DNA from: an uncultured Synechococcus sp.
GTDB taxonomy: Bacteria; Cyanobacteriota; Cyanobacteriia; PCC-6307; Cyanobiaceae
DNA: 64,000 nucleotides
Reading direction: 5' to 3'
NCBI GenBank assembly: GCA_913049535.1
Contig: CAJWYF010000005.1
Location: 9,962 to 73,961, forward strand
Of this stretch, positions 2,848 to 28,606 are shown piece by piece. Positions within the stretch are counted from its first letter, which is position 1. Every line of letters begins with the position of its first letter. The notes under the pieces were generated by a model, which saw nothing but the letters and a program-made list of their open reading frames with translations, did not search any database and was not told the origin of the DNA. The position numbers and the translations under genes were made by a program.

Positions 2848-3108
2848 ATGCTTCCCAGCTCCGACACTCCCCTCTACAGCCATCCGTTGCCCGCCCTGGA
2901 GCAGTGGCTGCAGACCAGCGGCTTCATCCAGTCGCCGGCGGATCCATGCCTCTGGACGCTGGTGCGCTCCCAGTGGACAGCAGAGCTGATCCTGCAAAGC
3001 GACGGCTTGGTGATCAGCTGGACCGCTGAGGGCCGCAGCACCCAGCGGGGGTTTTCCTACGGGCTGACCCGGGCCGATTTGGAGAGTGCCATTTTGGCGG
3101 GCCCTTAG
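2848..3108 (+). CDS. DUF3143-like conserved cyanobacterial protein
   Basis: MLPSSDTPLYSHPLPALEQWL...LTRADLESAIL pattern. Confidence 0.75.
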   Translation: MLPSSDTPLYSHPLPALEQWLQTSGFIQSPADPCLWTLVRSQWTAELILQSDGLVISWTAEGRSTQRGFSYGLTRADLESAILAGP

Positions 3109-9635: not shown

Positions 9636-10238
9636 ATGACCAGCTCAGATCCTTCCATGCAACTCAATCACACCCCTGGCCACATCAAGCACTCCGGCCA
9701 TAATCTCACGGGTTTTGTGATTTTTCTCTGCTCTGAGAGCATCATCTTTTTGGCTTTCTTTGCCGGTTTTACGCTCTTCAAGCTGACCTCGCCGGAGTGG
9801 CTTCCACCAGGCGTCGAGGGCCTCGAGGTCAGGATGCCTCTGATTAATACCGTTGTGTTGGTAAGCTCCAGCTTTGTGGCCTACTTTGCCGAGCGCTATC
9901 TGCATAAGGGCAACCTCTGGGGCTTTCGCATCGTCTGGTTCATCACCATGTTGATGGGCGCTTACTTTGTTTATGGGCAGTATGTGGAATGGTCCAGCCT
10001 TGAGTTCGGCCTCGGCAGTGGTGTGTTCGGAGGGACCTTCTATTTGCTCACAGGATTCCATGGCTTGCATGTGATCACAGGCATTGGATTGATGGGGCTC
10101 ATGCTTTATCACTCCTTCCGTCCTGGCAACTATGAGAAAGGAGATATGGGCGTCACCGCTGTGAGTCTGTTCTGGCACTTCGTGGATGTGATTTGGATCA
10201 TCCTTTTTGTGCTCATTTACGTCTGGCAACGCTACTGA
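9636..10238 (+). CDS. ctaE: Heme-copper oxidase subunit III, ARTO CtaEII
   Basis: IFLCSESIIF, TGFHGLHV, FWHFVDVIW motifs. Confidence 0.93.
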   Translation: MTSSDPSMQLNHTPGHIKHSGHNLTGFVIFLCSESIIFLAFFAGFTLFKLTSPEWLPPGVEGLEVRMPLINTVVLVSSSFVAYFAERYLHKGNLWGFRIVWFITMLMGAYFVYGQYVEWSSLEFGLGSGVFGGTFYLLTGFHGLHVITGIGLMGLMLYHSFRPGNYEKGDMGVTAVSLFWHFVDVIWIILFVLIYVWQRY

Positions 10239-10248
10239 GGAGCCGATC

Positions 10249-16061: not shown

Positions 16062-16078
16062 GCCTGAAGGATGATTCA

Positions 16079-18784
16079 ATGGCACGCAAGCTGAACGTTC
16101 AATCAACACCTGAGTGGATGCGGGTCCTTGAGGATCAGCGGGGTGATATTGACTGGGGGCTATGGGGGACGTACCTACCGGATCGACAGTGGGGAACGGT
16201 TCGTGAGTGCTATTGCCCCAGCCTGGATGCTTGGCGCTCGTTCACCCATGATCAATCCCGATCGAGGGTGTATCGCTGGGGCGAGGATGGACTGCTGGGC
16301 TTGAGTGATCGCCATTGCATGCTTTGCTTTGCACCGAGTTTCTGGAATCACCGTGATCCAATCCTCAAAGAACGTTTGTTTGGCTTGGCAAACCATGAGG
16401 GCAATCACGGAGAAGATGTTAAAGAGGTTTATTATCATCTTCTGAATACGCCAAGTCACAGTTATGCCAAGGGTTTGTACGTCTATCCCATTCAGGCATT
16501 CCCTTACGATGAACTGGTGGATGCCAATCAGGCCCGAGCTCGTACTGAGGCTGAGTATGAGCTAGAGGATACTGGCGTCTTTAAGGAGTTGGGTGCTTTT
16601 CACTGTTATGTGGAGTATGCCAAAAATCATTTCAATGATCTTCTGATTCGCATCACTGTAGAAAATCAATCGCAGTTCTCGGCACCAATCACCATCCTCC
16701 CCACTCTCTGGATTCGTAATCAGTGGGATTGGGGCTACCCTGAAATTCAAAAAGGCTCAATCAGGCCTGGTGAGCATCATTCCCTTGATATCAGCAGTAT
16801 CAAAGGTGTAGGCCCTGGTCGCTTTCGCTATGAGGAGTTGGAGGAGTATTCTTTTTATTGTGATCAGCCCAATTCATGGATTTTTACCGATAATGAAACC
16901 AACCATGATGTGGTTTTTTCGCAGGCTTCAAAGACGCCTTACACCAAGGACGCTTTTCATCGCTTTGTGGTGGATGGTCAGAGCAATGCTGTTAACGCTG
17001 TGGGGGGGACAAAAGCCGCCATGGTTTGTCAGCGGGAGCTTTCAGCTGGTGAGTCGTGGACGATTTGTTGCCGCCTGAGTCAAATTGCCACGGATGATCC
17101 GTTTGGCGGTGAGTTTGATGTGATGATGCGGCGCCGCGCCATGGAGGCGCAGCAGTTTTACGCTGCATCATTTCAAGCTCTTGAGTTGGAGCCCAGCGGT
17201 CAACACTATGCAACGTATTGCGCAGCATCGGCAGGTTTGCTTTGGTCTAAAAAGTTTTACTCCTTTAATGTACGGCGTTGGCTGAAGGGAGATCCAGGCC
17301 ATCCTGTGCCGGCAGAACAGCGCAAGTTGACGGATTATGCCAATTGGAAATATCTGAACTCAACCGGACTCTTTTTAATGCCTGATGCTTGGGAATATCC
17401 CTATTTTTGTAAATGGGATCTGATGTTTCATGCCGTTGCCTGCGCTGATCTTGATCCAGCTCTTGCTAAACAGCAGGTCAATATTCTCAGGACCAGCGAA
17501 TATGCAGCATCCAATGCCCAGGTTCCCGCCTATGAATGGGCTTTCTCCGATGTAGACCCACCATTAGGCGCCTGGGCTGCTTGGCGCGTCTTCACAACAG
17601 ACCGCAGCCGTCGCAGGGATGGAGATTGGGACTTTCTGGTTGATGCCTGGCGCCTGTTGCTTGTGGAATATGGCTGGTGGGCGAACCGCACGGACCGTAC
17701 AGGGCACGAGCTATTTGATGGTGGCTTCCTTGGCCTTGACAATATTTCGCCATTTGATCGTCGCTATCCACTGAAAGATGGACGTCGTATCGAGCAGGCG
17801 GACGGGACAGCTTGGATGGCATTCCTGACCCTTTATATGCTCAAGATCACCGTAGCGATTGACCAACATGATGGTTTGGCAGATGTTTCTGAGATGGTCA
17901 ATCGATTCAAGATGAGCTTCATCAATCTTGTGGTGACGATGAATCATGCTGATGAGCGTGGTTATCAGTGCTGGGATCCAGAAGATCAGTTTTATTATGA
18001 TTTGCTGTCTTCAGCTGATGGACGCGCTGAGTATGTCAAAGTGCGCTCATTGACAGGTGTGATTCCACTGCTGGCTGTTCAGTCTTTCTCAAAGGAAGAA
18101 GTGGAGTATGACCAGCGCCTTGATATTGATGAATTTCGGCGCTCCTATTCACGCTTTTATTCACAAGACGCTTTTTACGACTCTATTCATCACCTTGGTC
18201 GCTATGGCACCGGCCGCTATCTGTATGCAGTGGTTTCGCCCGAACGCTTGCGTCAAATCTGTCGATGGTTGTTTGATGAGGACGAGTTTCTTTCCCCTTA
18301 CGGTATTCGCTCATTGTCCAAACACTACCAAGACCATCCTTACCGCTATGACGTTGCTGGTGAGACCTTTCAGATTGAGTACACGCCAGCTGATAGTCCA
18401 GTTTCCATGTTCGGGGGCAATTCAAACTGGCGAGGACCTGTCTGGATCCCCATCAACTATCTTCTGATTGAAGCGCTGCAGGAGTATTTCCGTGCGCTTG
18501 GGCGTGACTTCCTCATTGAGTATCCAACAGGTTCAGGTCAATATCTGAATCTTGAGCAGATTGCCAGCGATTTGCGCAACCGGCTGCTGGCTTTATTTGC
18601 GGCGGATGAATCAGGCCTGCCGCCCTTTGTTCCCCCCGGCTCATACCGCGACACCCATCGGGAGCTGGTGCCCCATCTGTTGTTTCATGAGTATTTCAAT
18701 GGTGACACCGGCCAGGGGGTTGGCGCCAGCCATCAGACCGGCTGGACTGCGATGGTTCGGCGCCTGATTCTGCAGTGCTCTTGA
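16079..18784 (+). CDS. GH63-related (MGH1-like) glycoside hydrolase 2, 901 aa
   Basis: [79 protein letters not shown]. Confidence 0.85.
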   Translation: MARKLNVQSTPEWMRVLEDQRGDIDWGLWGTYLPDRQWGTVRECYCPSLDAWRSFTHDQSRSRVYRWGEDGLLGLSDRHCMLCFAPSFWNHRDPILKERLFGLANHEGNHGEDVKEVYYHLLNTPSHSYAKGLYVYPIQAFPYDELVDANQARARTEAEYELEDTGVFKELGAFHCYVEYAKNHFNDLLIRITVENQSQFSAPITILPTLWIRNQWDWGYPEIQKGSIRPGEHHSLDISSIKGVGPGRFRYEELEEYSFYCDQPNSWIFTDNETNHDVVFSQASKTPYTKDAFHRFVVDGQSNAVNAVGGTKAAMVCQRELSAGESWTICCRLSQIATDDPFGGEFDVMMRRRAMEAQQFYAASFQALELEPSGQHYATYCAASAGLLWSKKFYSFNVRRWLKGDPGHPVPAEQRKLTDYANWKYLNSTGLFLMPDAWEYPYFCKWDLMFHAVACADLDPALAKQQVNILRTSEYAASNAQVPAYEWAFSDVDPPLGAWAAWRVFTTDRSRRRDGDWDFLVDAWRLLLVEYGWWANRTDRTGHELFDGGFLGLDNISPFDRRYPLKDGRRIEQADGTAWMAFLTLYMLKITVAIDQHDGLADVSEMVNRFKMSFINLVVTMNHADERGYQCWDPEDQFYYDLLSSADGRAEYVKVRSLTGVIPLLAVQSFSKEEVEYDQRLDIDEFRRSYSRFYSQDAFYDSIHHLGRYGTGRYLYAVVSPERLRQICRWLFDEDEFLSPYGIRSLSKHYQDHPYRYDVAGETFQIEYTPADSPVSMFGGNSNWRGPVWIPINYLLIEALQEYFRALGRDFLIEYPTGSGQYLNLEQIASDLRNRLLALFAADESGLPPFVPPGSYRDTHRELVPHLLFHEYFNGDTGQGVGASHQTGWTAMVRRLILQCS

Positions 18785-18820
18785 TGGCTACCTTTGGAGG
18801 GTCCATCTCGTGTCGCGGCC

Positions 18821-19234
18821 ATGACAATCGGTGATGTCCTGAAAACCACCGTTAGCCATCCCTTCATCACCCGCATCAATCACATTGCGCTGATGGCCAG
18901 GCCCGGTGAGCATCATCAGGCTCGTGCATTTTATGCTGGTCTGCTGGGGATGACGGAAGTTCCGTTGCCGGATGATCTTTGTGGCAACAGCAATCTTGAT
19001 CTCGTTTGGTTCGTCTTTAATGACGTGATGATTCATGTCTCCTTCACAGATGACTATGTGCCTGTGCCTGTTGGTCGGCATGTCTGCATTGAGGTGGAGA
19101 ATCTTGGTGATCTGCGCGTCAGAATGGAAGCGGCTGGTTGTGGGATTGAGGAGCAGGTGAGGCTGCCGGATCGAGAGCGGTTCTTTGTCTCCGACCCCTT
19201 TGGGAACTACTTTGAATTCATGGAATTCAACTGA
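18821..19234 (+). CDS. VOC/glyoxalase-family protein
   Basis: RINHIALM, AFYAGLLGMTEV, HVCIEVENL, FVSDPFGNYFEF; start 18821 (ATG) or 18794 (TTG). Confidence 0.85.
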   Translation: MTIGDVLKTTVSHPFITRINHIALMARPGEHHQARAFYAGLLGMTEVPLPDDLCGNSNLDLVWFVFNDVMIHVSFTDDYVPVPVGRHVCIEVENLGDLRVRMEAAGCGIEEQVRLPDRERFFVSDPFGNYFEFMEFN

Positions 19235-20705
19235 TTGTTGACTTTGGTCCGCGTGCACGGGTGTAGCAAAGCACCCCGCCCAGCACGCTTAAGGCCACCA
19301 GGCTGGCGAACAGTGTGTCTTGCGCTTTGAGATAGATGCTGGCTTCGATTTGGCCGTGGAGCGCCTGGCGCAGCATCGCGGCGGCATAGGCGGTTCCCAC
19401 AGCTGAGCCGATAAAGCTCAATGCCCAGATCACGCCCGAGGCTGTGCCTGTGCGGGCGAGTGGTACAGCATCAAGAGATGCACTGTTGTTGGGTGATACG
19501 AATAAGCCAGACGCCGAGCCAAGCAGCAGCATCGCGCCCACGAGCTTGATGATCACCAGCATGGAGTCTTGGTTCATGCTTCCCGGTCCATGGCCGATCG
19601 AGTTCAGCCAGAGCAGGGCGACCCCGCCGGTGATGAACCCCAAGGTGGTCAGCCAACGTGGTCCAAAACGATCACTGAGGTGACCGGCGATGGGGCCGGC
19701 AACAGCCAAACCCAATGAGTAAGGGAGCATGACCAGGCCGCTCTGGAGAGAATTGAAATGCAGCACGGTCTGGGTGAAAAAGGGGATGGCAAAAAGACAG
19801 GCTGCAACGATGGTGTTGTTGAGCAAACGCGTTCCAGATCCTCGAGCAAATTCGCCGATTCGAAAGAGGCGCACATCGATCAGGGGATGGCTCTGCTTGA
19901 GTTCCACCCAGATGAACCCAAGCAAGCCCGCTAAACCAGCGCTGGTGAGGCCAACGGTGAGCGTCGAGAGTGACTGTTCCTTGGCAAAGTGCTGCACACC
20001 CAACATCAATCCGCCGACACCGATTGAGGCCAACGCAAAGCCAGGCAGATCAAACTGTTGAGGCCCTGCCGTCTTCTGCTCTGGCTCAAGCTGGTCGGAG
20101 CGCAGGATCCAGCAGCCCACCAACAACGAGGCCAGAGCGATGGGCACATTCACAAAGAAGATTGAGCGCCATCCCAGGAGTTGAATCAAGATCCCGCCGA
20201 GCGTGAAACCCAATGCAAAACCCACCGAATACACCGTCCCATTGATCCCCAGGGCCAGGCCGTGTTGCCGCAAGGGGAAGACCGCCAAGGAAATCACATT
20301 GCTGTTGGCCAGCAGGGCTGCAGCTCCGACCGCTTGCAGGGCTCGCATGGCAATGAGCATGCCGATGTTGGGAGCTAGCCCAGACAGCGCTGAGCCCATG
20401 GCGAAGAGCGAAAACCCAACCACAAAGACGGTTTTTCGTCCTCGAATATCGCTGATGCGTCCAGCTGCTGGCAGGGCCAACGCCACCACCACAAAAAAGA
20501 CGGCAATGACCCATTGGGAGCTGGCGACCGACACCTTGAATTCGCTGGTGATGCTCGGTAAGGCCAGATTGGTGATGGTTGAATCAATGCCGATCAGCAG
20601 GATGCTGAGTTGCACGACAAGCAGAGCCCACCATTTGTAGCGGTCTGCTGCGACTTCTTGATCAATCCAGCGGTCCCGAGGGTGCTGCTGTTGAGCGGCC
20701 GCCAT
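19227..20705 (-). CDS. MFS transporter, DHA2 (EmrB/QacA-like) exporter
   Basis: IDSTITNLALPSI, GRISDIRGRK motif A, RALQAVGAA, WRSIFFVNVP, PLIDVRLF; about 14 TM. Confidence 0.9.
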   Translation of the reverse strand: MAAAQQQHPRDRWIDQEVAADRYKWWALLVVQLSILLIGIDSTITNLALPSITSEFKVSVASSQWVIAVFFVVVALALPAAGRISDIRGRKTVFVVGFSLFAMGSALSGLAPNIGMLIAMRALQAVGAAALLANSNVISLAVFPLRQHGLALGINGTVYSVGFALGFTLGGILIQLLGWRSIFFVNVPIALASLLVGCWILRSDQLEPEQKTAGPQQFDLPGFALASIGVGGLMLGVQHFAKEQSLSTLTVGLTSAGLAGLLGFIWVELKQSHPLIDVRLFRIGEFARGSGTRLLNNTIVAACLFAIPFFTQTVLHFNSLQSGLVMLPYSLGLAVAGPIAGHLSDRFGPRWLTTLGFITGGVALLWLNSIGHGPGSMNQDSMLVIIKLVGAMLLLGSASGLFVSPNNSASLDAVPLARTGTASGVIWALSFIGSAVGTAYAAAMLRQALHGQIEASIYLKAQDTLFASLVALSVLGGVLCYTRARGPKSTIS

Positions 20706-20874
20706 TGATCTGCATTGTCTCCAGGCATGGTAGGCAGCACTTCAGCGCGACTCTGATTCACCTGGAATCTGTTGTTAAGTCCTGACGGCTGGGGCTCAAG
20801 CACGAAGACATGTTGGCGCTGTGATCTGCTGCTGCTTCGTGATTGCTAAAGACGCTGGTGATGCATGACGAGCG

Positions 20875-21831
20875 ATGCCAAATCTCCTGTGCCTCCAAGG
20901 CCTGATCAGGAATTGCAGCGATCTTGATGGCCTCAAGAACTGGTATGTCGAGCAACTTGGCTTGACGCTTGCATGGGAGCAGCGCTGCACGGCGGCATGG
21001 ATTTCTGAGCTGTTTCCAGGGACTGTTGCTGCAAGCTTGGACTGTTGTGCCTTGCGACTGGGCCAGGAGACGTTGTGGTTGATGTCCTGGCCCGAGGTGT
21101 TGATGCAGCCGATGCCTGCCGCAACCCGGGGAATTGACCACTGGTTTCAGCACATTTGTCTGGTGAGTGATGCGCTGGAGAGGGCTTATGCCGAACGGTT
21201 GCAAGGCGCCTGCCGTCCCATTTCCACCGCTCCCCAGACCTTGCCCGAGTGGAATCGGGGTGCTGCAGGGATTCAGGCGGTGAAGTTCTTTGACCTTGAA
21301 GGGCACCCCCTCGAGCTGCTGCAGTTTCCGCCGGGGAAGGGGGCGCCGCGTTGGCATGCTGATCACGATGGCTCCGGCCAGCCTCGGGGGATCGATCACA
21401 CCGCGATTTCCATTGCTGACACCACCATCAGCCTGTCGTTTTATGGCGAGCTCTTGGGGCTCCAGCGTGTCGGCGGAGGCCTCAACCATGGTCCTGAACA
21501 GGATGCGCTGGATGGACTGGAGTCAGCCCGCGTTGAGATCACCGCGCTGCAGGCTCAACCCGGCCAGATGGGGGTTGAGTTCCTTCACTATCAGAGTCCA
21601 CGCGGTGGCATGAGCCGCGCCGATGCCCGTTGGAGTGATCTGGTGAACGACACGATGGTGATCCAAGCCGATGGGATTCGCGATCTTCACGCTCGCGCTC
21701 AGGCATCGCCGTGGGCTCAGCACTGCAGCTCTCTGGTTTCGCTCCCCTTGCCCCTGTTTGGCGGAGAGTTGGGATTCACCCTGCGGGATCCCGACCTGCA
21801 TGGGGTGCTCCTGGTGGGTGAGGATCGCTAG
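20875..21831 (+). CDS. Two-domain VOC-family protein
   Basis: FQHICLVS, KFFDLEGHPLELLQFP, GIDHTAISIAD, GVEFLHY. Confidence 0.8.
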   Translation: MPNLLCLQGLIRNCSDLDGLKNWYVEQLGLTLAWEQRCTAAWISELFPGTVAASLDCCALRLGQETLWLMSWPEVLMQPMPAATRGIDHWFQHICLVSDALERAYAERLQGACRPISTAPQTLPEWNRGAAGIQAVKFFDLEGHPLELLQFPPGKGAPRWHADHDGSGQPRGIDHTAISIADTTISLSFYGELLGLQRVGGGLNHGPEQDALDGLESARVEITALQAQPGQMGVEFLHYQSPRGGMSRADARWSDLVNDTMVIQADGIRDLHARAQASPWAQHCSSLVSLPLPLFGGELGFTLRDPDLHGVLLVGEDR

Positions 21832-22268
21832 TCGGTGGTTACGGCAAGCAGTTCGCGCAGGGCCTGCACACCGGCGCTGGCAATGGCACTGTCCTCAGCA
21901 GGTGTCATGCCTGAAACGCCAACGGCGCCGAGACATTGATCCCCTGCCATCAACGGCAGGCCTCCACCCATGGAGACCGCTGGCTGGTTCAGGGCCATGC
22001 TCAATTGCAGCAAAGCAGGTCGGTTGGTGTTGATGGAGGCCTCGAGATCGGCGGTGGCTTTGCCGCTAAGGGCCGCCATTCGGGCCTTGGCGATGGCTAT
22101 CTCACAGCTGGCTGGTGCTGCTTGATGCAGACGTTTGAAGCGCAGTAGGTAGCCATCCATGCCCACCAGAGCAATCGAGACACGCGCCTGGTTGCGCTGC
22201 GCAGCCGCATCTGCTGCGGCCATGATCACGTCGCTATCGGCGGACTCGAGACAGAGGATGGATCGCAT
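21828..22268 (-). CDS. GlcG/HbpS-family heme-binding protein
   Basis: IAIAKARMAA, GGGLPL...LGAVGVSG...ED..IA..G. Confidence 0.85.
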   Translation of the reverse strand: MRSILCLESADSDVIMAAADAAAQRNQARVSIALVGMDGYLLRFKRLHQAAPASCEIAIAKARMAALSGKATADLEASINTNRPALLQLSMALNQPAVSMGGGLPLMAGDQCLGAVGVSGMTPAEDSAIASAGVQALRELLAVTTD

Positions 22269-22525
22269 CAGTTCCAGAGAATGCGCATGAGCCAGAGATG
22301 ACCCTGGAGTTCCACGCCTGCAGCAATCGGTGCCAGCTCTTCGGGCGTTAAGCGAAGCGTCGCCTCGGCTTGATGGGTCACCACATCAATGCCGCTGAAG
22401 GCGAACCCGTGCAGGCGGCCCAGCGCTGCAACTTCATCGAGATTGGGGCAGCTGGCGCATTGCTCACGCAAGGCAGGATCTGCCTTGACCTGGCGCAGGA
22501 AGGCTTCCAATTGCTCGTTGGCCAT
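22268..22525 (-). CDS. Nif11-like leader peptide family protein, 85 aa
   Basis: MANEQLEAFLRQVKADPALREQ...GFAFS...LTPEELAPIAAG then 15-aa tail; TGATG overlap with GlcG gene. Confidence 0.8.
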   Translation of the reverse strand: MANEQLEAFLRQVKADPALREQCASCPNLDEVAALGRLHGFAFSGIDVVTHQAEATLRLTPEELAPIAAGVELQGHLWLMRILWN

Positions 22526-22529
22526 GGGA

Positions 22530-23459
22530 TTAGATGTCGGTGGTTGGCAGGCCGCGGGTGTTGGTGAACAGGGCGTACACGGCGTTTGTGGCACAGATGA
22601 ACAGCCGGCAGTTCTGACGATCCCCGAAGCACAGATTCGACACCCGGCGGGGCACCAGCACCTTGCCGATCAACTGGCCGTCAGGGGCTATGCAATGGAC
22701 CCCATCTGCGGCACTGCACCAAAGGTTTCCCTGCTCATCCACCCGGAATCCATCGGCCCATCCGGGGTTGATTTTGTGAAAAATCTCTCCGCCACTGAGG
22801 CTGCGGCCATCCTCAGACACCTGGAACACCCGGATGTACTGGCGAGGTTCTAACGCTCCTGGGGTGCCGGATTCAGCGACATACAGCAGCCGTTCATCTG
22901 GTGAGAAAGCCAAGCCATTGGGACCGTCAAAATCGGTGGCCATGGCATCGATCTGACCGCTGGTGGGGTCAAGGCGATAGAGCGCTGGTGGTTGCTCTGA
23001 AGTGTGGCGACCTCCTTCGTAATCGCTCATCAAGCCGTAAAGGGGATCGCTGAACCAGATCGATCCATCGCGGGTCACGGTCACATCATTAGGGCTGTTG
23101 AGTCGCTTGCCGCCAGCGTGGGTGGCAAGCACAGTGATGTGTCCGTCCAGTTCGCGGCGTGTGAGACAGCGGCTGCGGTGATGGCACTGAATCAGACGGC
23201 CCTGGCGATCCCGGATTTGGCCGTTGGCGAACTCCGATGGCTCAAGAAAGGTGGTGAGGCCGTGCTGGCTGCTCCAGCGCAAGGTGCGGTTGCTGGGGAT
23301 GTCGTTGAACAACAGGCATTGGTGATCGCCAAACCAAACCGGGCCTTCTGGCCATCGGAATCCACTGGCCAGGCACTCCAGCTCTGCGTTGAAGAGCACG
23401 AGTGCATCAAAGCGGGGGTCAAAGCTTTCCGTGCAGCTGGAGGGTTGATGGCTCATCAC
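22530..23459 (-). CDS. SMP-30/gluconolactonase/LRE family protein
   Basis: WPEGPVW, LNSPNDV, PNGLAFSPDE, ADGFRVDEQGNLW, SNLCFG. Confidence 0.9.
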   Translation of the reverse strand: MMSHQPSSCTESFDPRFDALVLFNAELECLASGFRWPEGPVWFGDHQCLLFNDIPSNRTLRWSSQHGLTTFLEPSEFANGQIRDRQGRLIQCHHRSRCLTRRELDGHITVLATHAGGKRLNSPNDVTVTRDGSIWFSDPLYGLMSDYEGGRHTSEQPPALYRLDPTSGQIDAMATDFDGPNGLAFSPDERLLYVAESGTPGALEPRQYIRVFQVSEDGRSLSGGEIFHKINPGWADGFRVDEQGNLWCSAADGVHCIAPDGQLIGKVLVPRRVSNLCFGDRQNCRLFICATNAVYALFTNTRGLPTTDI

Positions 23460-23902
23460 TGCTCCGGCCTGGGGGGTGGGGACATTGCGGCGCCGAGCTG
23501 GACGATCATCAGGCGGCAGGGCTCATCCCCCACGACCCAGGAGAGATGGCCCCGCTTGCCGTCCTGGGCCATGGTGTTTTGATCGCCGCCGAAGGAGAGA
23601 TCGCCAACGCCCATCTCCACCCGTTGGCCATCCATGGTTTCAACGGCCCAGGCACCACTGATCGGCATCACCCATTGCGGCGCGGGATTCTCATGCCAAG
23701 GACTGCTCCACCCGGCTGGCAGTACAGAAAACAGCACCGTGGCATCACCAGAGCACGGGGCGGAGAGCCATTGCGGGGTGTTGCCTGAGGTGATCTCCTG
23801 CATCTTGAAATCCTGCAGCATCTGACGTGTTTGATGAGTGATGCCGCTGTTGTCAGTCCAGACATGCCAGAAGGGGATTCCAGGTTGCTCTTGTGATGTC
23901 AT
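23456..23902 (-). CDS. Cupin-domain protein
   Basis: LPAGWSSPWHENPAPQW, VETMDG, GHLSWVVGDEP; start 23902 (ATG) or 23989 (GTG) uncertain. Confidence 0.75.
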   Translation of the reverse strand: MTSQEQPGIPFWHVWTDNSGITHQTRQMLQDFKMQEITSGNTPQWLSAPCSGDATVLFSVLPAGWSSPWHENPAPQWVMPISGAWAVETMDGQRVEMGVGDLSFGGDQNTMAQDGKRGHLSWVVGDEPCRLMIVQLGAAMSPPPRPEQ

Positions 23903-24031
23903 GCCGACTCCCCGTGCTTCATCGGCATAGGCGCTAGTGGTAAAGAATGCGTTGTTACTGCTGGCATCTGGTGGCTTTAGATCTTGCACAGCATTGGATG
24001 TCTAGCCTGAAGACCATGCGGCTGTTTTGTC

Positions 24032-24526
24032 ATGAATCTGACGGTTGTTGAATTACTCGTGCCGGCCCCACCGTCAACGGCAGAAGAGTTTTCCTTATTG
24101 GTGATGCGGCTATTTATTGGCATTAGTTTCATTCGCCATGGCTGGCCCAAGCTGCGCAACCTCAAGACGTGGGCCACATCCATGCGTACGCCAGCCTGGC
24201 TGTGCTTCCTCTCGGCAGCTTCCATGTTCCTCGCGGGCCTGGTGCTGCTTCCTGGGCTGCTGACCCCGCTGGCAGCCCTCGCCATTTTGTTGAACATGGC
24301 CTATGCCATGGTTCTCGAGGCGCGGTCTGGTTTGCCCTTCTTTGCTCCAGATCCGTATCAGATTCCTGACGGTGAATATGAAGGGCCGGAAGGCCTTGGT
24401 GAGCCACCGAGTTGGGAGAAAGCTGCGATGTATGTGGTGATGTGCTTCGTCTTGATGTTTGCAGGTGGTGGTCTGCTTTCTCTCGATAACCTCTTGATTG
24501 CCGATCTGCTGCAAGCTTGGGCATGA
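24032..24526 (+). CDS. DoxX-family membrane protein
   Basis: LLVMRLFIGISFIRHGWPKL, LLTPLAALAIL, GGGLLSLD. Confidence 0.8.
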   Translation: MNLTVVELLVPAPPSTAEEFSLLVMRLFIGISFIRHGWPKLRNLKTWATSMRTPAWLCFLSAASMFLAGLVLLPGLLTPLAALAILLNMAYAMVLEARSGLPFFAPDPYQIPDGEYEGPEGLGEPPSWEKAAMYVVMCFVLMFAGGGLLSLDNLLIADLLQAWA

Positions 24527-25320
24527 CGTCCAGCTCTGTCGTGATGATTGAACGATTCCTTGACGGCAAAGTTGCCATTGTTACCGGTGCCAACACCGGG
24601 ATCGGCAAGTCGATCGCAGAGGAGCTGGCCAAGCGGGGGGCCAAGGTTGTGATCAACTACCGCTCCCACCCCGAGCGCACCGATGAGATCGTCGCTGCAA
24701 TCCAAGCAGCAGGTGGTGAGGCGATTGGTGCCCAGGCGGATGTGACAGAGCTCGATCAGCTCCAGGGTGTCGTCGATACAGCCGTTTCCACCTATGGCCG
24801 GCTCGACATCATGGTCAACAACGCCGGCCTCGAGACCCGCACCTCGGTCCTCGACACCACTCCTGAGGACTATGACAAGGTGCTTGATGTCAACCTCAAG
24901 AGCGCGTTCTTTGGCACGCAATTTGCGGCCAAGCAGATGATCAAGCAGGGCGGTGGCGGCCGCATCATCAACATCTCCTCCGTGCATGAGGACTGGCCGA
25001 TGCCCAACAACACCGCCTACTGCCTCTCCAAAGGTGGGGTCCGCATGCTCACCCGCACGGCCGGGCTTGAGCTCGCTCCCCACGGCATCACGATGGTGAA
25101 CATCGGTCCTGGAGCCGTTGATACTCCCATCAATGCCTCCTATGCCGGCAACCAGGCGTTGCTGGCAAAGCTCAACGCAGCGATTCCGCTTGGCCGCATG
25201 GCTGAACCCGAGGAAATTGCTTCAGTGGCTGCGTTCGTTGCCAGCGATGGCGCCAGCTACATCACCGCCACCAGCATCTTTGCCGATGGCGGCATCATGC
25301 AGAGCAGCCCTGGGCTCTGA
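24523..25320 (+). CDS. SDR oxidoreductase, glucose 1-dehydrogenase-like
   Basis: TGANTGIG, VVINYRS, VNNAG, NISSVHE, YCLSKGG (YxxxK), NIGPGAVDTPIN, PLGRMAEPEEIA; pattern matches Bacillus Gdh-type SDRs; ATGA overlap with DoxX. Confidence 0.8.
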   Translation: MTSSSVVMIERFLDGKVAIVTGANTGIGKSIAEELAKRGAKVVINYRSHPERTDEIVAAIQAAGGEAIGAQADVTELDQLQGVVDTAVSTYGRLDIMVNNAGLETRTSVLDTTPEDYDKVLDVNLKSAFFGTQFAAKQMIKQGGGGRIINISSVHEDWPMPNNTAYCLSKGGVRMLTRTAGLELAPHGITMVNIGPGAVDTPINASYAGNQALLAKLNAAIPLGRMAEPEEIASVAAFVASDGASYITATSIFADGGIMQSSPGL

Positions 25321-25325
25321 GCGCT

Positions 25326-25985
25326 TCAGCCGGTGCCGCCCAACTTGGCGTGATCCCACACACGCTGCAGCGTCTGTTGATTGAGCTCCTGCTGCGGTGT
25401 GAGCTCCGCTAGGACCGGAACCTTGCCAACGGTTTCCAAGGTTTCACGGTTGGCAGGGTGCAGAGGGCCATTGAGCACCAACCCCAGCACAGGGATCGTG
25501 CGTGCTGCCAGGGCCTCCAGCGACAGCAAGGTGTGATTCAAGGTGCCCAGGCCGCTGCGGGCCACCAGCAGCACGGGCAGTTCCCAGCGCTTGATCTGCT
25601 CGATCTGCATCAGGTCATCGCGCAGGGGCACCAGCAGACCGCCAGCGGTTTCCACCACCAGGGGACCTTCAACGGCCGGCAACTCAAGCCGGGAGGCATC
25701 CACGCTGATTCCTTCATCCCGCGCTGCCTGGTTCGGCGAAGCCGGTGCGGCCAGCCGGTAAGCCTCCGGCAGCACGCAGGGAGGTGTGCTGCCTCGGCGC
25801 AGGCCGGTGAGCCCCGCAACGCGGCCGCTGTCACCGCCCAGCTCCAGCTCTCCGCACTGGACCGGCTTCCAGTAGCTGGCTCCTAGACCCTGCACCAGCA
25901 GGGCGCTGACCACGGTTTTGCCCACGTCGGTGTCGGTGCCCACCACCACAAGGCGGCCATCGCTGGGGATCCAGGCAGGGTTCAC
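25326..25985 (-). CDS. bioD: Dethiobiotin synthase
   Basis: VVGTDTDVGKT, YWKPVQCG, VETAGGLLVP, LGTLNHTLL; GTG at 25985 overlaps bioC stop. Confidence 0.93.
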   Translation of the reverse strand: MNPAWIPSDGRLVVVGTDTDVGKTVVSALLVQGLGASYWKPVQCGELELGGDSGRVAGLTGLRRGSTPPCVLPEAYRLAAPASPNQAARDEGISVDASRLELPAVEGPLVVETAGGLLVPLRDDLMQIEQIKRWELPVLLVARSGLGTLNHTLLSLEALAARTIPVLGLVLNGPLHPANRETLETVGKVPVLAELTPQQELNQQTLQRVWDHAKLGGTG

Positions 25986-26740
25986 AGGCGGCGTGCCAGC
26001 AACAGCAAGAGTCTCCAGCGCAGCACGGCGCGTCCATCGTCGCTGAGGGGCCAATGGCGCAGCAGCTGCCGCAGCTCGGTGGCGCGCAACTGATGGCTGG
26101 CACCGCCGTGCACCCCGAGATGCCGCAGTTCCCGCAGGAAATCCATCGGGCTGGGATAAGAGCAGCTGAAGCTCAGCACTTGCTGCTGGTGGATGGCCGC
26201 CACCCCATCGAGTGCCTCGCTCAGCGCTTCTGAGGCCGGCAACTTCAGCGCGCTGCAGCGCACACCGGCTGCTTGAGCGGCTTGATGCCAGCTGCAGAGG
26301 CTGCCGGCTACCGGCACGGTGAGCGCCAGCCAGCCCTGAGGCGCCAGTGCTTGGGCCCACTGCCGCAGCTGTGCCGCTGGCCGCTGCAGCCAGTGCAACG
26401 CAAAGCTGCTCAAAAGCAGTGAGCTGCACTCTGCTTCGGGAGGCAGTCCCTGGTTGAGATCCCAGTGCAACTGTTGCCCCTGTGGCACCTCAGCCTCCGC
26501 CAGCAGGGCAGGGCAGTTGTCCACCAGCAGCGGCTTGATCGCCGGGCGTTGCATGGCCAAGGCCCGGCTGAGATTGCCCGAGCCGGCCCCCAGATCAAGC
26601 ACAGGCCCGGGCCCCAGGGGCAGATCGCTGCAGTGATGGGCCAAGCGCCAGGCCACGGCCTGCTGCAGCCGGGCCTCACGGGCGTAGCGCGCAGCTCCCT
26701 GGCTGAAGGCCGTGACGCTGCTGCGTGCCACCGGATTCAA
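25982..26740 (-). CDS. bioC: Malonyl-ACP O-methyltransferase (BioC-like)
   Basis: VLDLGAGSG SAM motif, SSFALHW; position in bio cluster; TTG at 26740 overlaps upstream stop. Confidence 0.8.
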   Translation of the reverse strand: MNPVARSSVTAFSQGAARYAREARLQQAVAWRLAHHCSDLPLGPGPVLDLGAGSGNLSRALAMQRPAIKPLLVDNCPALLAEAEVPQGQQLHWDLNQGLPPEAECSSLLLSSFALHWLQRPAAQLRQWAQALAPQGWLALTVPVAGSLCSWHQAAQAAGVRCSALKLPASEALSEALDGVAAIHQQQVLSFSCSYPSPMDFLRELRHLGVHGGASHQLRATELRQLLRHWPLSDDGRAVLRWRLLLLLARRL

Positions 26741-27456
26741 CGCAACTCCGCAATCCACTGCAGCACCTGAGCAGGCAGAGAGGGCACCATCAGGCCATGG
26801 CCCACCCCATCGAGTGGAAGCACTGTCGCTTTCGGCAGGGCCTGCCGTAGGGCTTCCCGGCTCAGGGGGTGAACGATCTGATCGTCGCTGGCCTCCACCA
26901 ACAGTACTGGCGCCGCCTGCGGAAACGAGGCCGGCAGGTCGCTGCAGTGCGCCAACACCGCCAGGTCATCCCGCAGGCGGGCCAGTCCCTGGGCTTGCAC
27001 CGGTCCGTCTTCCACCCCGGCAGGCAGCAGCTCCACCGGCTGGGGTTCGGCCACCCGAATGCGGAAATCGGCGAACAGTTGCGGCAGTTCGCCAGCAGCG
27101 AGGCGCTCGTCCATGCGCCGCAGGGCCAGCGCCAGCGGCCGACCTGCAGCACCGCTGGGTACAAAACGGCCAAAGCTGGCCAGCAGCACCACCGCCTCAG
27201 CGGCCGCCAGGGTCTGCGGTGGCACCAGATGCATGCCAAGGGAATTCAGCAGCAACGCGCGGCGGCCCGGTCCCTCCCAGTCCGGTTGGGCTGCTGGGAA
27301 ACGGCCATAGCCCCGTTCGAAACATCGCAATGGCCACTTCCGCAGCTCGCAGCTGCGGCGAAAACCATTCCAGGCGCGCTGGTCACTGCCCCAGCCATGC
27401 ATGCACAGCAGTTGCCAGTTGGTTGTCACGGCCGCCCCTTGGCTGCTCTCCATCAT
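26737..27456 (-). CDS. Alpha/beta hydrolase, BioH/BioK-type pimeloyl-ACP methyl ester esterase
   Basis: MHGWG, NSLG nucleophile elbow, DQIV, GVGHG; lies between bioF and bioC. Confidence 0.75.
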   Translation of the reverse strand: MMESSQGAAVTTNWQLLCMHGWGSDQRAWNGFRRSCELRKWPLRCFERGYGRFPAAQPDWEGPGRRALLLNSLGMHLVPPQTLAAAEAVVLLASFGRFVPSGAAGRPLALALRRMDERLAAGELPQLFADFRIRVAEPQPVELLPAGVEDGPVQAQGLARLRDDLAVLAHCSDLPASFPQAAPVLLVEASDDQIVHPLSREALRQALPKATVLPLDGVGHGLMVPSLPAQVLQWIAELR

Positions 27457-28604
27457 TGAGTGCCGCTGCAGCGCTCCAGCACCTCGAGCACGCTGCCCAG
27501 GGCATGGTCAGGCAGCTGGGGCCGCAGGCTCAAGCGCAGCATCGCCTCGCCCTCCGGCACCGTCGGTGGTCGGATCGGCACCACCAAAAGGCCGCGCTGC
27601 TCCAGTGCGGCAGCGGCTTCATTGGCGCGGCGGTCATCCCCCAGTTTGATGGCCAGCACCGGACCTTGCCCCGGCGGGCGTGGCCAGCCGGATGCTGCGA
27701 TCGCCGCTCGCCACTGCTCGGCCGTGTTGCACAGCTGTTGGCGTCGCACGTCCCCTTCTGCCCCTGCAATCAGTCGCAGGGCCGCCAGTGCCGCTGCGGC
27801 CAGTGGCGGCGCCAAGGCGGTGGTGTAGCGGAAGGCGCCACTGCCCTGTAGCAGGGCGTCCCCCAGGGCTTGATCGCAGGCCAGAAAGGCGCCGCCGCTG
27901 CCGAAGGCCTTGCCGAAGGTGCCGCAGAGCAGGCTGATGCCTTGATGCCCGTGCCCCAGACCGCGTCCACCAGGGCCCAGGACCCCCAGGGCATGGGCTT
28001 CATCGAGCAGTAGGGCTGCATCGTGCTGATGGCAGAGCCCAACGAGGGCGCTGATGTCTGGGCTGCTGCCCTCCATGGAAAACAGGCTTTCGCTGAGCAC
28101 CACCAGTTGTCGCTGGGGGTCGTCGCGCCGTTGCTGCATCAGCCGTTGCTGCAGATCGCTGAGGTCGTTATGGGCAAAGCGCTGCAGCCTGGCGCCGCAG
28201 GCGCGCACGCCCACCAAAAGCGAGTGGTGGATCCGCCGGTCGGCCAGCACCAGGCTGTGACGGTCAGCCAGGATCTGCAGGGCGGCGATATTGGCCTGAA
28301 AGCCACTGGGATAGAGCAGGACCCGCTCTCTCCCCAGCCAGTTCGCCAGCTCGTGTTCCAGGGCTTGGTGCTCCGGCCGGCTGCCGCTCACCAGCCGCGA
28401 GGCTCCGCTGCCAACGCCGCTGCGGCTGATGCAATCGATGGCGGCCTGTTTGAGCAGGGGATGGTCGCTCAGCGCCAGGGTGTTGTTGCTGGCCAGATCC
28501 AGCAGGGCTGAGGCGGGCTCCTCGGCCAGATGTCCGGCACCCTGGTGCACAAACGTGCGCAACCGGCGGCGGCGATGCGGACTCTGCTCACCCATAGGAT
28601 TCAT
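27453..28604 (-). CDS. bioF: 8-amino-7-oxononanoate synthase
   Basis: GSGASRLVSG, SGFQAN, ESLFSMEG, LDEAHALG, GTFGKAFG, YTTALAP, IRPPTVP. Confidence 0.92.
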   Translation of the reverse strand: MNPMGEQSPHRRRRLRTFVHQGAGHLAEEPASALLDLASNNTLALSDHPLLKQAAIDCISRSGVGSGASRLVSGSRPEHQALEHELANWLGRERVLLYPSGFQANIAALQILADRHSLVLADRRIHHSLLVGVRACGARLQRFAHNDLSDLQQRLMQQRRDDPQRQLVVLSESLFSMEGSSPDISALVGLCHQHDAALLLDEAHALGVLGPGGRGLGHGHQGISLLCGTFGKAFGSGGAFLACDQALGDALLQGSGAFRYTTALAPPLAAAALAALRLIAGAEGDVRRQQLCNTAEQWRAAIAASGWPRPPGQGPVLAIKLGDDRRANEAAAALEQRGLLVVPIRPPTVPEGEAMLRLSLRPQLPDHALGSVLEVLERCSGTQ

Positions 28605-28606
28605 CC

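Follow-up and report, generated by a model that had tools for sequence, protein, structure and literature searches.

A glucose dehydrogenase-like SDR and a gluconolactonase-family module meet in an island of an uncultured Synechococcus: a plausible glucose-to-gluconate step

The locus lies in a 64,000-nucleotide stretch (here called the window) of contig CAJWYF010000005.1 from an uncultured Synechococcus sp. Four genes are encoded on the minus strand, namely a small cupin (23456-23902, with a possible GTG start at 23989; Cupin_2 score of 25 bits, slightly below the cut-off), an SMP-30/SGL lactonase (22530-23459; PF08450, 159 bits), a Nif11-domain small protein of 85 amino acids (22268-22525; PF07862, and TIGR03798 with 56 bits against a cut-off of 32) and an HbpS/GlcG-like (DUF336) protein (21828-22268; PF03928, 94 bits). 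Divergent from these, on the plus strand, are a DoxX membrane protein (24032-24526; PF07681) and an SDR resembling NAD(P)-dependent glucose 1-dehydrogenases (24523-25320, alternative TTG start at 24517; PDB and NCBIfam matches). The identities and strands that the first-pass annotation had given to these six genes were all confirmed. Also on the plus strand lie a GH63-like (MGH1-like) hydrolase of 902 residues (hydrolase 1, 11766-14474; PF22422 and PF03200), the FAD-dependent GMC dehydrogenase GMC2 (14508-16061; assigned from its nearest solved structures and orthologue context), a second GH63-like hydrolase of 901 residues (hydrolase 2, 16079-18784; Pfam) and the two-domain VOC protein VOC2 of the glyoxalase/dioxygenase superfamily (20875-21831; PF00903).

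The tight coupling proposed for the cupin-lactonase-Nif11-GlcG run is evident at its junctions as read from the sequence: the cupin stop and lactonase start overlap in GTGATG, the TAA stop of the lactonase is followed by a 4-nt gap (TCCC) and the ATG of nif11, and the Nif11 stop and GlcG start overlap in TGATG. The DoxX stop and SDR start likewise overlap (ATGA), and the convergent VOC2 and GlcG-like genes have CTAG in common at their stop codons. The cupin and DoxX genes diverge from a shared intergenic stretch (23903-24031), in which no sigma-70-type consensus was found. The lactonase operon is inverted in this genome, on the strand opposite to VOC2, and is placed between VOC2 and DoxX-SDR; in a complete genome of the same genus, GMC2, VOC, DoxX and SDR are all co-directional.

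The top matches of the SDR among solved structures are all glucose 1-dehydrogenases. The Bacillus megaterium enzyme 1GCO is matched with an E-value of 3e-68 and 233 bits over a gap-free alignment with 113 of 249 residues identical (45%), and the first match other than a glucose dehydrogenase is FabG with 179 bits. NCBIfam model NF005559 scores 234 bits, above its cut-off of 215, and NF006493 scores 264 bits, below its cut-off of 420. The catalytic residues N126, S155, Y168 and K172 are retained, and the SSVHE, YCLSKGG and NIGPGAVDTPIN motifs cited in the first-pass annotation are all present in the translation. Like 1GCO and its cyanobacterial homologues, the protein is a classical SDR of about 260 residues, sharing with them the N-S-Y-K tetrad, the NYRS cofactor-loop motif, SSVHE and NIGPGA(I/V)xTPIN. 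In a tree it clusters with Bacillus glucose dehydrogenase and GH63-linked cyanobacterial SDRs, separate from the genome's own FabG. It is nevertheless set apart from the Bacillus enzyme by its substrate loop, where the stretch from the catalytic Ser to the catalytic Tyr differs (HEDWPMPNNTAY versus HEKIPWPLFVHY), and by C-termini that fall outside the alignment (5 residues of the query and 9 of the 261-residue 1GCO chain), and the picocyanobacterial SDR clade is no closer to the other cyanobacterial glucose dehydrogenase-like clade (45-53% identity) than to Bacillus. At an identity of 45%, SDR specificity is labile. The SDR, the gene of which is already named in public annotation, is best regarded as a probable glucose dehydrogenase. 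1GCO-type glucose dehydrogenases of Spirulina and Lyngbya have been found to be active, glucose-specific and to prefer NADP (2026; bioRxiv 10.64898/2026.04.01.715859). The present SDR differs from Bacillus-type systems in having no accompanying gluconokinase and in its setting, an operon that also contains genes for an alternative terminal oxidase, GMC and GH63 proteins.

The lactonase is 40% identical to 3E5Z, a putative gluconolactonase from Deinococcus, and 39% identical to the Xanthomonas campestris gluconolactonase XC5397 (3DR2), with which and with mammalian SMP-30/regucalcin it shares the six-bladed propeller. All four metal and substrate residues of SMP-30 (E18, N103, N154 and D204) are conserved as E38, N124, N181 and D236. 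XC5397 is exported, whereas no signal peptide was found in the sequence of the present protein, a cytoplasmic lactonase of the SMP-30/gluconolactonase family with an intact active site. A further difference from these relatives is its translational coupling with the cupin and nif11 genes, and its substrate is putative. The lactonase is optional: it is missing from 29 of 54 island-bearing genomes and thus present in about half of them. In Salinicola, its homologues stand last in a sugar ABC-transporter operon. In the picocyanobacterial genus g46, the SDR is followed after 27 nt by another SGL-family gene that is unrelated to this one; its product has a Sec signal peptide although the SDR is a cytoplasmic protein, which counts against a joint glucose-oxidation reading.

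The conserved partners of the lactonase are GMC2, DoxX, the cupin and the two-domain VOC protein. All five genes occur together in Pleurocapsa, Sulfuriferula and two further bacterial contigs, in three of these four loci as one co-directional run; in the fourth (L065) the GMC gene is divergently transcribed. The gene order differs in Pleurocapsa, where VOC stands between cupin and SGL, and Methylobacterium has a partial module with the GMC gene apart from cupin-SGL-VOC. The cupin-SGL order is kept in picocyanobacteria, Methylobacterium, Sulfuriferula and the two further contigs. In these two contigs a GH15 glucosidase gene flanks the module, and one of them also has a glucose dehydrogenase-like SDR and an enolase-superfamily gene. 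In all four full-module loci DoxX (52% identical between this genome and Pleurocapsa) adjoins the GMC2 orthologue, and both share their locus with cupin-SGL-VOC. The "DoxX-SDR pair" of the first-pass annotation is an accidental junction of two modules: across phyla, DoxX groups with GMC2-cupin-SGL-VOC and not with the SDR, and it is probably the membrane or quinone partner of GMC2.

GMC2 itself is the oxidant conserved alongside the lactonase, its orthologues (49-54% identity) lying within DoxX-cupin-SGL-VOC operons. Its nearest solved structures are the alpha subunit of the Burkholderia FAD-glucose dehydrogenase (1.6e-34) and fructose dehydrogenase. It is the same kind of FAD catalytic subunit as in the Burkholderia cepacia complex (6A2U; EC 1.1.5.9) and Gluconobacter fructose dehydrogenase, with a Cys-rich motif (CVKCNRCDGFPC) at the position of their 3Fe-4S cluster, and lactone-forming chemistry of this type would suit a neighbouring lactonase. 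Unlike those complexes, it is cytoplasmic, without a cytochrome c subunit or a Tat-signal small subunit, and the neighbouring position is taken by DoxX. Orthologues outside cyanobacteria have only three Cys in this motif or have lost it. The clade also holds gluconate 2-, sorbitol and glucoside 3-dehydrogenases; since these and fructose dehydrogenase are among its members, oxidation at C1 by GMC2 is not established. The AlphaFold model of the cupin (pLDDT 94) confirms its fold, Foldseek returned generic cupins only (TM ≤0.46), 105 homologues were found, and an alignment shows invariant WHENPxPQW and GH motifs. An SGL gene shares the cupin locus in four of seven distant contexts examined, and in Methylobacterium (L016) besides. 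VOC homologues (30-46% identity) belong to the module in all contexts examined; VOC2 had no match in the PDB. Nif11 is kept at the same position in picocyanobacterial relatives (58-70% identity) and is absent from the module in Pleurocapsa, Sulfuriferula and the two further contigs. The GlcG-like protein is similarly conserved in picocyanobacterial relatives and absent from the module elsewhere. As its solved relatives are 2A2L, NahX, EfgA and PduO-C, this DUF336/HbpS-like protein says nothing about glucose, and we reject it as a glucose-linked gene.

The first-pass annotation would have been refuted by distal genes distributed independently of the GH63/GMC block, but the two turn out to be co-distributed. 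Among 200 family genomes, 54 have both SDR and GMC2, 5 the SDR only, 3 GMC2 only and 138 neither, the 8 discordant genomes all being 53-89% complete; the SDR is a core island gene. The SGL orthologue is nested in this set (24 of 25), and hydrolase 1 co-occurs with SDR and GMC2. In at least 21 other cyanobacterial genomes, a glucose dehydrogenase-like SDR directly precedes a GH63-like gene of about 900 codons, at a distance of 0-177 nt. This conserved adjacency, together with the position of the lactonase module beside GH15 or GH63 genes, fits a hydrolase followed by a glucose oxidant. GH63 and GH15 enzymes are inverting, so that their product is beta-glucose, and this anomer is the one on which EC 1.1.1.47 and FAD-glucose dehydrogenases act. 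Hydrolase 2 lies in a low-GC stretch (GC 0.50-0.55) and varies in occurrence: a same-genus genome (G023; not in L038) is without it, and genus g46 has it at 58% identity.

The window contains no gluconate kinase or dehydratase, as had been noted, and the search of the remaining genome for gntK, edd and eda revealed no gntK, no true edd and only a weak Eda-like aldolase. Gluconokinase and Edd were likewise not found in 16 near-complete island-bearing relatives, so that the route stops at gluconate, for which this lineage has no known further pathway. Also against the route, genomes of cyanobacteria that have the SDR do not have gntK more often (13 of 40) than those that lack the SDR (17 of 40), and proteomics of marine relatives did not find that gluconate or Entner-Doudoroff enzymes played a part (PMC10100731).

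On balance, we lean towards the view that the stretch joins pieces of two conserved modules, the substrate of both being free beta-D-glucose or an aldose much like it. Inverting alpha-glucosidase-like enzymes, GH63-like here and GH15 in other bacteria, would release beta-D-glucose. In the first module, the SDR would be a soluble, Bacillus-type NAD(P)+-dependent aldose 1-dehydrogenase that turns glucose into glucono-1,5-lactone and yields NAD(P)H; it would have stood last in an ancestral island operon of two DUF2231 genes, ARTO ctaCII-DII-EII, GMC1, GH63, GMC2, VOC, DoxX and SDR. In the second module, C1 of the same sugar is most likely oxidised by GMC2, and we infer that its electrons pass via the membrane protein DoxX to the quinone pool. 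The cytoplasmic lactonase would open the lactone to the aldonic acid, one enzyme serving both oxidants and yet dispensable, given the spontaneous hydrolysis that aldonolactones also undergo. The cupin and VOC would be obligatory members of the module, and Nif11 and the GlcG-like protein picocyanobacterial additions.

It is rather unlikely that glucose is not the substrate of the GMC2-DoxX-cupin-SGL-VOC module and that the module handles another aldose, a glycoside-derived lactol or a lactone derived from a quinone or an aromatic compound, with cupin and VOC as dioxygenases or isomerases, the lactonase opening that lactone and the SDR a separate glucose (or other) dehydrogenase tied only to GH63. 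Such a view would account for the strict conservation with the lactonase of cupin, VOC and DoxX, which are unnecessary for plain glucose-to-gluconate chemistry, and would agree with the lack of characterised close relatives of VOC2 and the cupin, with the RidA and DUF336 genes added in relatives, which are typical of reactive-intermediate handling, and with the lack of an SDR adjoining the Pleurocapsa and Sulfuriferula modules. However, glucose-releasing GH15 or GH63 genes lie beside the module in four independent lineages, a glucose dehydrogenase-like SDR adjoins it in one lineage and a 6PGD-like gene in another, the nearest characterised relatives of the lactonase are gluconolactonases, and the nearest solved structure to GMC2 is a glucose dehydrogenase.

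We consider it improbable that the island encodes an oxidise-cleave-reduce route for glycosides, in which a glucoside is oxidised at C2 or C3 by GMC1 and GMC2, the resulting keto-glycoside is cleaved by the GH63-like enzyme or by VOC and cupin, the SDR runs reductively from keto-glucose and NADPH to glucose, and the lactonase is peripheral. The known pathways of this kind use a lyase or sugar-isomerase-type eliminase that is absent here, the nearest relatives of the SDR are glucose dehydrogenases that oxidise C1, and assayed cyanobacterial homologues oxidise glucose. Moreover, two separate lactonase lineages have been recruited beside SDR or GMC2, which indicates a lactone product. These points stand against the glucoside 3-dehydrogenases in the FAD/Fe-S GMC clade, the SDR-GH63-GMC2 trio conserved across cyanobacteria, the hydrolase flanked by two GMC paralogues and the missing gluconate-consuming enzyme. 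Lastly, the minus-strand genes might be miscellaneous damage-control genes at a variable island border that share no pathway. The region is rearranged from genome to genome, a low-GC insertion adjoins it, and a drug-type MFS transporter and VOC proteins are among the neighbours; but the cupin-SGL order conserved from picocyanobacteria to Methylobacterium, Sulfuriferula and the two further contigs, the overlapping start and stop codons and the strong co-distribution render this explanation very improbable and strongly disfavoured.

The preferred reading, with two modules oxidising glucose or a similar aldose, resembles periplasmic oxidation in Gluconobacter and Pseudomonas (membrane glucose dehydrogenase, gluconolactonase and FAD gluconate 2-dehydrogenase) in combining a quinone-linked sugar dehydrogenase, a lactonase, a second FAD/GMC-type dehydrogenase and a terminal oxidase, and in halting at sugar acids. 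It differs in that all proteins lack export signals, no PQQ enzyme is present and the host lives by oxygenic photoautotrophy. The idea that a photoautotroph oxidises glucose non-phosphorylatively has precedents in the 2016 proposal and the active Spirulina and Lyngbya enzymes of 2026, and so is not new. A glucose dehydrogenase/gluconokinase bypass and an Entner-Doudoroff route were proposed for cyanobacteria (Chen et al. 2016, PMC4868481), a proposal since revised (bioRxiv 10.64898/2026.04.01.715859). The first step, by an NAD(P)-dependent glucose dehydrogenase, would be the same here, with a dedicated lactonase in addition; however, with gluconokinase and Edd missing, the bypass is not completable with known enzymes. 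Of the glucose to gluconolactone to gluconate route put forward initially, the part resting on the glucose dehydrogenase-like SDR, the intact lactonase site and the co-distribution stands, whereas the operon logic, the optional lactonase and the missing onward enzymes speak against the remainder. As judged from their sequences, the SDR and the lactonase belong to conserved modules attached to glucose-releasing hydrolases, and a glucose-to-gluconate step is therefore plausible in this picocyanobacterium.

The six genes that the first-pass annotation had described for region 21828-25320 are all real. On the minus strand lie the genes for a cupin (23456-23902, or to 23989 with a GTG start), a lactonase of the SMP-30/gluconolactonase family (SGL; 22530-23459), a Nif11-domain protein (22268-22525) and an HbpS-like/DUF336 protein named 'GlcG' (21828-22268), while the plus strand carries doxX (24032-24526) and the gene for a classical SDR (24517 or 24523 to 25320) that is a putative NAD(P) glucose 1-dehydrogenase. 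The junctions are also as first stated, namely GTGATG for cupin/SGL, TAA-TCCC-ATG for SGL/Nif11, TGATG for Nif11/GlcG and ATGA for DoxX/SDR. The gene for VOC2 (+), a glyoxalase/dioxygenase-superfamily protein, and the GlcG-like gene (-) are convergent, and the same four bases, CTAG (21828-21831), end both in a palindromic stop-codon overlap. No promoter or terminator exceeding the shuffled background was found in a scan of 20600-25500. A biotin operon (bioF, bioH-like, bioC, bioD; 25326-28736, minus strand) forms the right-hand border, which is conserved in the relatives whose loci extend to that side (L012, L015, L038, L039 and L042). The host genome is that of a picocyanobacterium (1.93 Mb, 90.7% complete), with Cyanobium, Vulcanococcus and freshwater Synechococcus as its nearest relatives.

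The SDR aligns without gaps to residues 4-252 of the Bacillus megaterium glucose 1-dehydrogenase 1GCO (113 of 249 residues identical, 45%), including its cofactor motif TGANTGIG (TGxxxGxG type) and the tetrad N126, S155, Y168 and K172. Its top nine PDB sequences (214-233 bits) are glucose dehydrogenases and two equal-length entries deposited as 'Dehydrogenase' and 'IRED', and the first match beyond those nine is FabG with 179 bits. In a maximum-likelihood tree, the clade of the window SDR grouped with the clade of other cyanobacterial SDRs and with the Bacillus enzymes, apart from the FabG-like protein that is its sole close paralogue in the genome (39% identity). Both the PDB ranking and the tree therefore place the SDR nearer to characterised glucose dehydrogenases than to other characterised SDRs. 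Among the NCBIfam models, it exceeded the cut-off of NF005559 "glucose 1-dehydrogenase" (234 versus 215 bits) and fell below that of NF006493 (264 versus 420 bits), and its orthologues are already labelled glucose 1-dehydrogenase in public sources. The catalytic Ser-Tyr loop is unlike that of the Bacillus enzyme and the 1GCO alignment, on which the pocket was compared qualitatively, ends before either C-terminus, so that specificity is not proven. The predicted reaction is the oxidation of beta-D-glucose to glucono-1,5-lactone with NAD(P)+; the assayed homologues are 45-53% identical to this SDR.

The lactonase has a full six-bladed SGL domain at residues 36-290 (PF08450, 159 bits against a gathering score of 26.3), and it shares 40% identity with 3E5Z and 39% with the Xanthomonas gluconolactonase 3DR2. 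In the 4GNB and 3DR2 alignments, its residues E38, N124, N181 and D236 match E18, N103, N154 and D204 of human SMP-30, the divalent-metal and substrate residues of the SMP-30 and XC5397 structures. A signal peptide was not found in this protein. Hydrolysis of D-glucono-1,5-lactone is its predicted function; the SMP-30/SGL family also includes xylono-, arabinono- and further lactonases. The 'GlcG' protein was considered as a sign of glucose metabolism and rejected as such: among solved structures it is related to 2A2L, NahX, the formaldehyde sensor EfgA and the C-terminal domain of PduO, and the name, which stems from the glycolate operon of E. coli, has no bearing on glucose. The Nif11 protein matches the leader model TIGR03798 with 56 bits (cut-off 32) and its place within the metabolic operon is conserved, with no Nif11-leader RiPP maturase among the neighbouring genes examined.

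In 200 genomes of Cyanobiaceae, the GTDB family of the host, we looked for orthologues of the distal genes and of the block encoding the ~900-aa GH63-like hydrolases and the FAD-dependent GMC dehydrogenases. Orthologues were found in 59 genomes for the SDR (identity ≥68%), 57 for GMC2 (≥68%), 60 for GH63_1 (≥60%) and 25 for the lactonase (≥70%), counts that are not phylogenetically independent. SDR and GMC2 occurred together in 54 of the 200 genomes, and every one of the 8 discordant genomes is only 53-89% complete. The distal genes are thus co-distributed with the GH63/GMC block, as the glucose oxidation route proposed in the first-pass annotation would have it. The SDR was present in 24 of the 25 genomes with a lactonase orthologue, and the lactonase was missing from 29 of the 54 genomes in which SDR and GMC2 co-occur, which makes it a nested and optional component.

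In the complete genome of a same-genus relative (G023), the island is one co-directional array of DUF2231a-b, ctaCII-DII-EII (encoding the alternative terminal oxidase ARTO), GMC1, GH63, GMC2, VOC, DoxX and SDR, beyond which lies the convergent biotin operon. This order identifies the DoxX-SDR pair of the window as the terminal part of the island's main operon. In the window, GH63_2, VOC1, an MFS gene and then the inverted lactonase operon lie between GMC2 and DoxX-SDR, and most of the other relatives show the order SDR(-), RidA-cupin-SGL-Nif11-GlcG-VOC-DoxX(+), GMC2(-). The stretch with GH63_2, VOC1 and the MFS gene (16000-20000) has a GC content of 0.50-0.55, versus 0.60-0.69 in the remaining island, and is absent from G023, and an orthologue of GH63_2 (58% identity) occupies the same place in the genus g46. 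Together, these observations suggest that the second hydrolase was recently acquired or exchanged. A RidA (Ribonuc_L-PSP) gene precedes the cupin gene in most relatives (e.g. L004:9065-9502); none is found at that position in the window, where the cupin gene faces DoxX-SDR across ~130 bp. Culturable strains that bear the island and have close orthologues include Synechococcus sp. CS-1331, CS-1324 and HJ21-Hayes. In Synechococcus sp. CS-1324, the SDR gene convergently overlaps that of a 458-aa pyridine-nucleotide-disulphide oxidoreductase (NDH-2-like; L045:10794-12170), and the GH63-GMC2 pair has an Rrf2 regulator upstream instead of ARTO.

The association of the SDR with GH63-like hydrolases extends across the class. 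Among about 400 cyanobacterial genomes searched, GDH-like SDRs with 45-53% identity were found in 102 of the about 360 outside the family, and 900-aa GH63-like genes in 234 of 401. In at least 43 of these 102 genomes the SDR gene and a GH63-like gene are no more than 10 kb apart, and at least 23 SDR copies in at least 21 genomes are located 0-177 nt upstream of a GH63-like gene on the same strand. A GMC2 orthologue (49-55% identity) joins the SDR/GH63 pair in 7 of the 12 loci examined, and further genes in these clusters encode, among others, MIP channels, an OYE flavoprotein and a GDE-type hydrolase. The MIP-family (aquaglyceroporin-like) genes were observed in GH63/GMC2 clusters at L053:10260-11066 and, between GH63 and GMC2, at L057:7054-7899; a 272-aa ORF is found at the equivalent position in L056 (7526-8344). 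The presence of MIP genes hints that the hydrolase might free glycerol besides glucose, i.e. that its substrate might be glucosylglycerol. GH63 and GH15 enzymes are inverting and release beta-glucose, the anomeric form on which EC 1.1.1.47 and FAD-glucose dehydrogenases act, so that the order hydrolase, dehydrogenase, lactonase is chemically coherent.

The possibility that the GH63-like proteins are themselves GghA was rejected. Both 900-aa hydrolases match PF22422 and PF03200 (GH63/MGH1-like), and the Pfam search returned no match to GHL5 (presumably PF14872) for either of them. GghA (Slr1670), the known glucosylglycerol hydrolase, belongs to the GHL5 family (PMC5002435). Marine picocyanobacteria are without GghA, and an alternative route of glucosylglycerol degradation in them "cannot be excluded" (PMC6753628). 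The GH63-like hydrolases may act in the manner of a compatible-solute hydrolase, though they are not GghA.

From loci reached via the contigs of distant cupin homologues, we define here a five-gene module GMC-DoxX-cupin-SGL-VOC that is not a described family. Its genes form one co-directional operon in Sulfuriferula (L064, in the order GMC-DoxX-cupin-SGL-VOC), in Pleurocapsa PCC 7319 (L047, cupin-VOC-SGL-DoxX-GMC) and in another bacterium (L063, from a 4-Mb contig), where the order is SDR-GMC-DoxX-cupin-SGL-VOC-GH15, then a gene of the enolase superfamily. In L065, a 6-phosphogluconate-dehydrogenase-like gene and GMC are divergent from DoxX-cupin-SGL-VOC, with a GH15 gene beside them, and Methylobacterium has GMC and cupin-SGL-VOC. 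The orthologues share with the window proteins identities of 49-52% for GMC (to GMC2), 41-60% for the lactonase, about 55% for the cupin, 52% for DoxX and 30-36% for VOC. In the window itself, GMC2, VOC2, SGL, cupin and DoxX lie within 10 kb, and the module is split and partly inverted. The recurrence of these loci indicates that DoxX belongs with GMC2 and that the lactonase has the FAD enzyme rather than the SDR as its conserved oxidant. The operon logic is thus unlike that of the first-pass annotation, whose pairing of DoxX with the SDR gives way to a pairing with GMC2. In another picocyanobacterial genus, g46, a different SGL-family gene (L039:15938-16909, 30% identity), encoding a protein with a clear Sec signal peptide (MNSFKRFLLALLVFAGSSALA), starts 27 nt downstream of the SDR gene; this neighbourhood is independent support for a link between SDR and lactone. 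The same L039 island also holds genes for a glutathione peroxidase and an MRJP/yellow-type propeller. In Salinicola, SGL homologues end a monosaccharide ABC-transporter operon; operons were picked by hand for the high-GC proteobacterial loci, where greedy ORF calling gave too much noise to tally families.

The nearest solved structure to GMC2 is the catalytic subunit of the Burkholderia FAD-glucose dehydrogenase. At the place of the Fe-S cluster of that enzyme, GMC2 has the Cys motif CVKCNRCDGFPC, which non-cyanobacterial orthologues show in weaker form or have lost. For GMC1, GMC2 and the GH63-like proteins, no NCBIfam family exceeded its cut-off. The motifs WHENPxPQW and GH are invariant across the cupin family, and the fold of the cupin is predicted with confidence (model pLDDT 94). 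A Foldseek search with this model returned generic cupins alone (TM ≤0.46) and thus gave no clue to function, and PDB sequence searches with the cupin and VOC2 yielded nothing usable.

With regard to the fate of gluconate, the earlier observation that neither a gluconate kinase nor a dehydratase is encoded in the window holds genome-wide. The P-loop gluconokinase model TIGR01313 had no match in the host genome (90.7% complete) or in 16 island-bearing relatives (92-100% complete). The FGGY gluconokinase (TIGR01314) had none in the host genome, and the relatives have only generic FGGY kinases (≤132 bits versus a cut-off of 648). Edd was not detected in the host genome, whose sole IlvD/Edd-family gene is IlvD-like (256 bits versus a cut-off of 708), and the match to an Eda-like aldolase is weak (93 bits versus 156). 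Since gluconokinase and Edd are absent, the proposed route ends at gluconate. In other cyanobacteria, gntK was rejected as a companion of the SDR, being present in 13 of 40 genomes with the SDR versus 17 of 40 without it. A decayed gntK fragment (G420:C1:128097-128345, just downstream of L050 9356-12088; TIGR01313, 60 bits, two in-frame stops) directly follows an SDR-GH63 pair in one genome that has an intact gntK elsewhere, and may have been left over from an ancestral cluster SDR-GH63-gntK. Gluconate could possibly be oxidised further by a GMC enzyme or be handled by cupin and VOC chemistry. Export of the sugar acid is also possible in view of the MFS gene in the window and of EamA transporter genes at the equivalent place in relatives. 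Candidates for downstream steps, without counterpart in the picocyanobacterial island, adjoin the module in L063 (an enolase-superfamily (MR_MLE) protein and possible aldonate dehydratase, 10161-11276) and in L065 (the 6-phosphogluconate-dehydrogenase-like protein, 2815-3849).

Non-phosphorylative glucose oxidation in cyanobacteria has, as a general idea, been published before. A glucose dehydrogenase/gluconokinase bypass and the Entner-Doudoroff pathway were proposed in 2016 (PMC4868481) and have been disputed since. The Synechocystis case was withdrawn in a 2026 revision, in which this organism is without either route; the same study found 1GCO-type glucose dehydrogenases of Spirulina and Lyngbya to be glucose-specific and NADP-preferring, and a Lyngbya gluconokinase to be active (bioRxiv 10.64898/2026.04.01.715859). 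In marine picocyanobacteria, proteomics gave no sign that the Entner-Doudoroff pathway is involved (PMC10100731). No published description of the island (ARTO plus GMC) or of the five-gene module was found in the literature searched. New relative to that literature are the recognition of SDR with GH63 and of GMC-DoxX-cupin-SGL-VOC as conserved modules, and the finding that both are fused to ARTO in picocyanobacteria.

Taken together, the GDH-like SDR, the intact lactonase site and the co-distribution sustain the glucose-to-gluconate proposal in part; its operon logic needs revision, the lactonase is an optional component, and no known enzyme leads onward from gluconate. The best reading, towards which we lean on the basis of homology and conserved gene context only, is that glucose (or a similar aldose) is probably converted via the lactone to the aldonate. 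A more elaborate joint reading, which we regard as rather unlikely in its entirety, is that of a dedicated cytoplasmic sugar-burning unit that would end at the sugar acid, with GMC2-DoxX feeding ARTO. Such a unit would operate in Cyanobium-group picocyanobacteria and, in varied forms, in many other cyanobacteria and some heterotrophs. Beta-glucose would be liberated by the GH63-like hydrolase from an alpha-glucoside, which might be a compatible solute (e.g. glucosylglycerol or glucosylglycerate). Two enzymes would then oxidise the glucose side by side, namely an NADP-dependent glucose dehydrogenase and a glucose:quinone oxidoreductase of a new type, i.e. GMC2 anchored by DoxX, from which electrons would pass to ARTO. 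The product would be acted on by lactonase, cupin and VOC, with the carbon halting at, or exiting as, the sugar acid. This would resemble the incomplete sugar oxidation of Gluconobacter, with the difference that the proposed host is a photoautotroph.

If this is true, ARTO, for which we know of no electron donor or role, would gain a physiological electron donor; it is in picocyanobacteria that the five-gene module is physically joined to this oxidase. As a cross-phylum unit, the GMC-DoxX-cupin-lactonase-VOC module is new relative to the literature searched. A glucose dehydrogenase gene of the Bacillus type occurs widely among cyanobacteria, and its usual partners are a GMC dehydrogenase and a GH63-like hydrolase rather than gluconokinase, which changes the question on cyanobacterial glucose oxidation. 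Lastly, the GH63-like hydrolase may supply the missing route of glucosylglycerol breakdown in picocyanobacteria, which are without GghA (PMC6753628).
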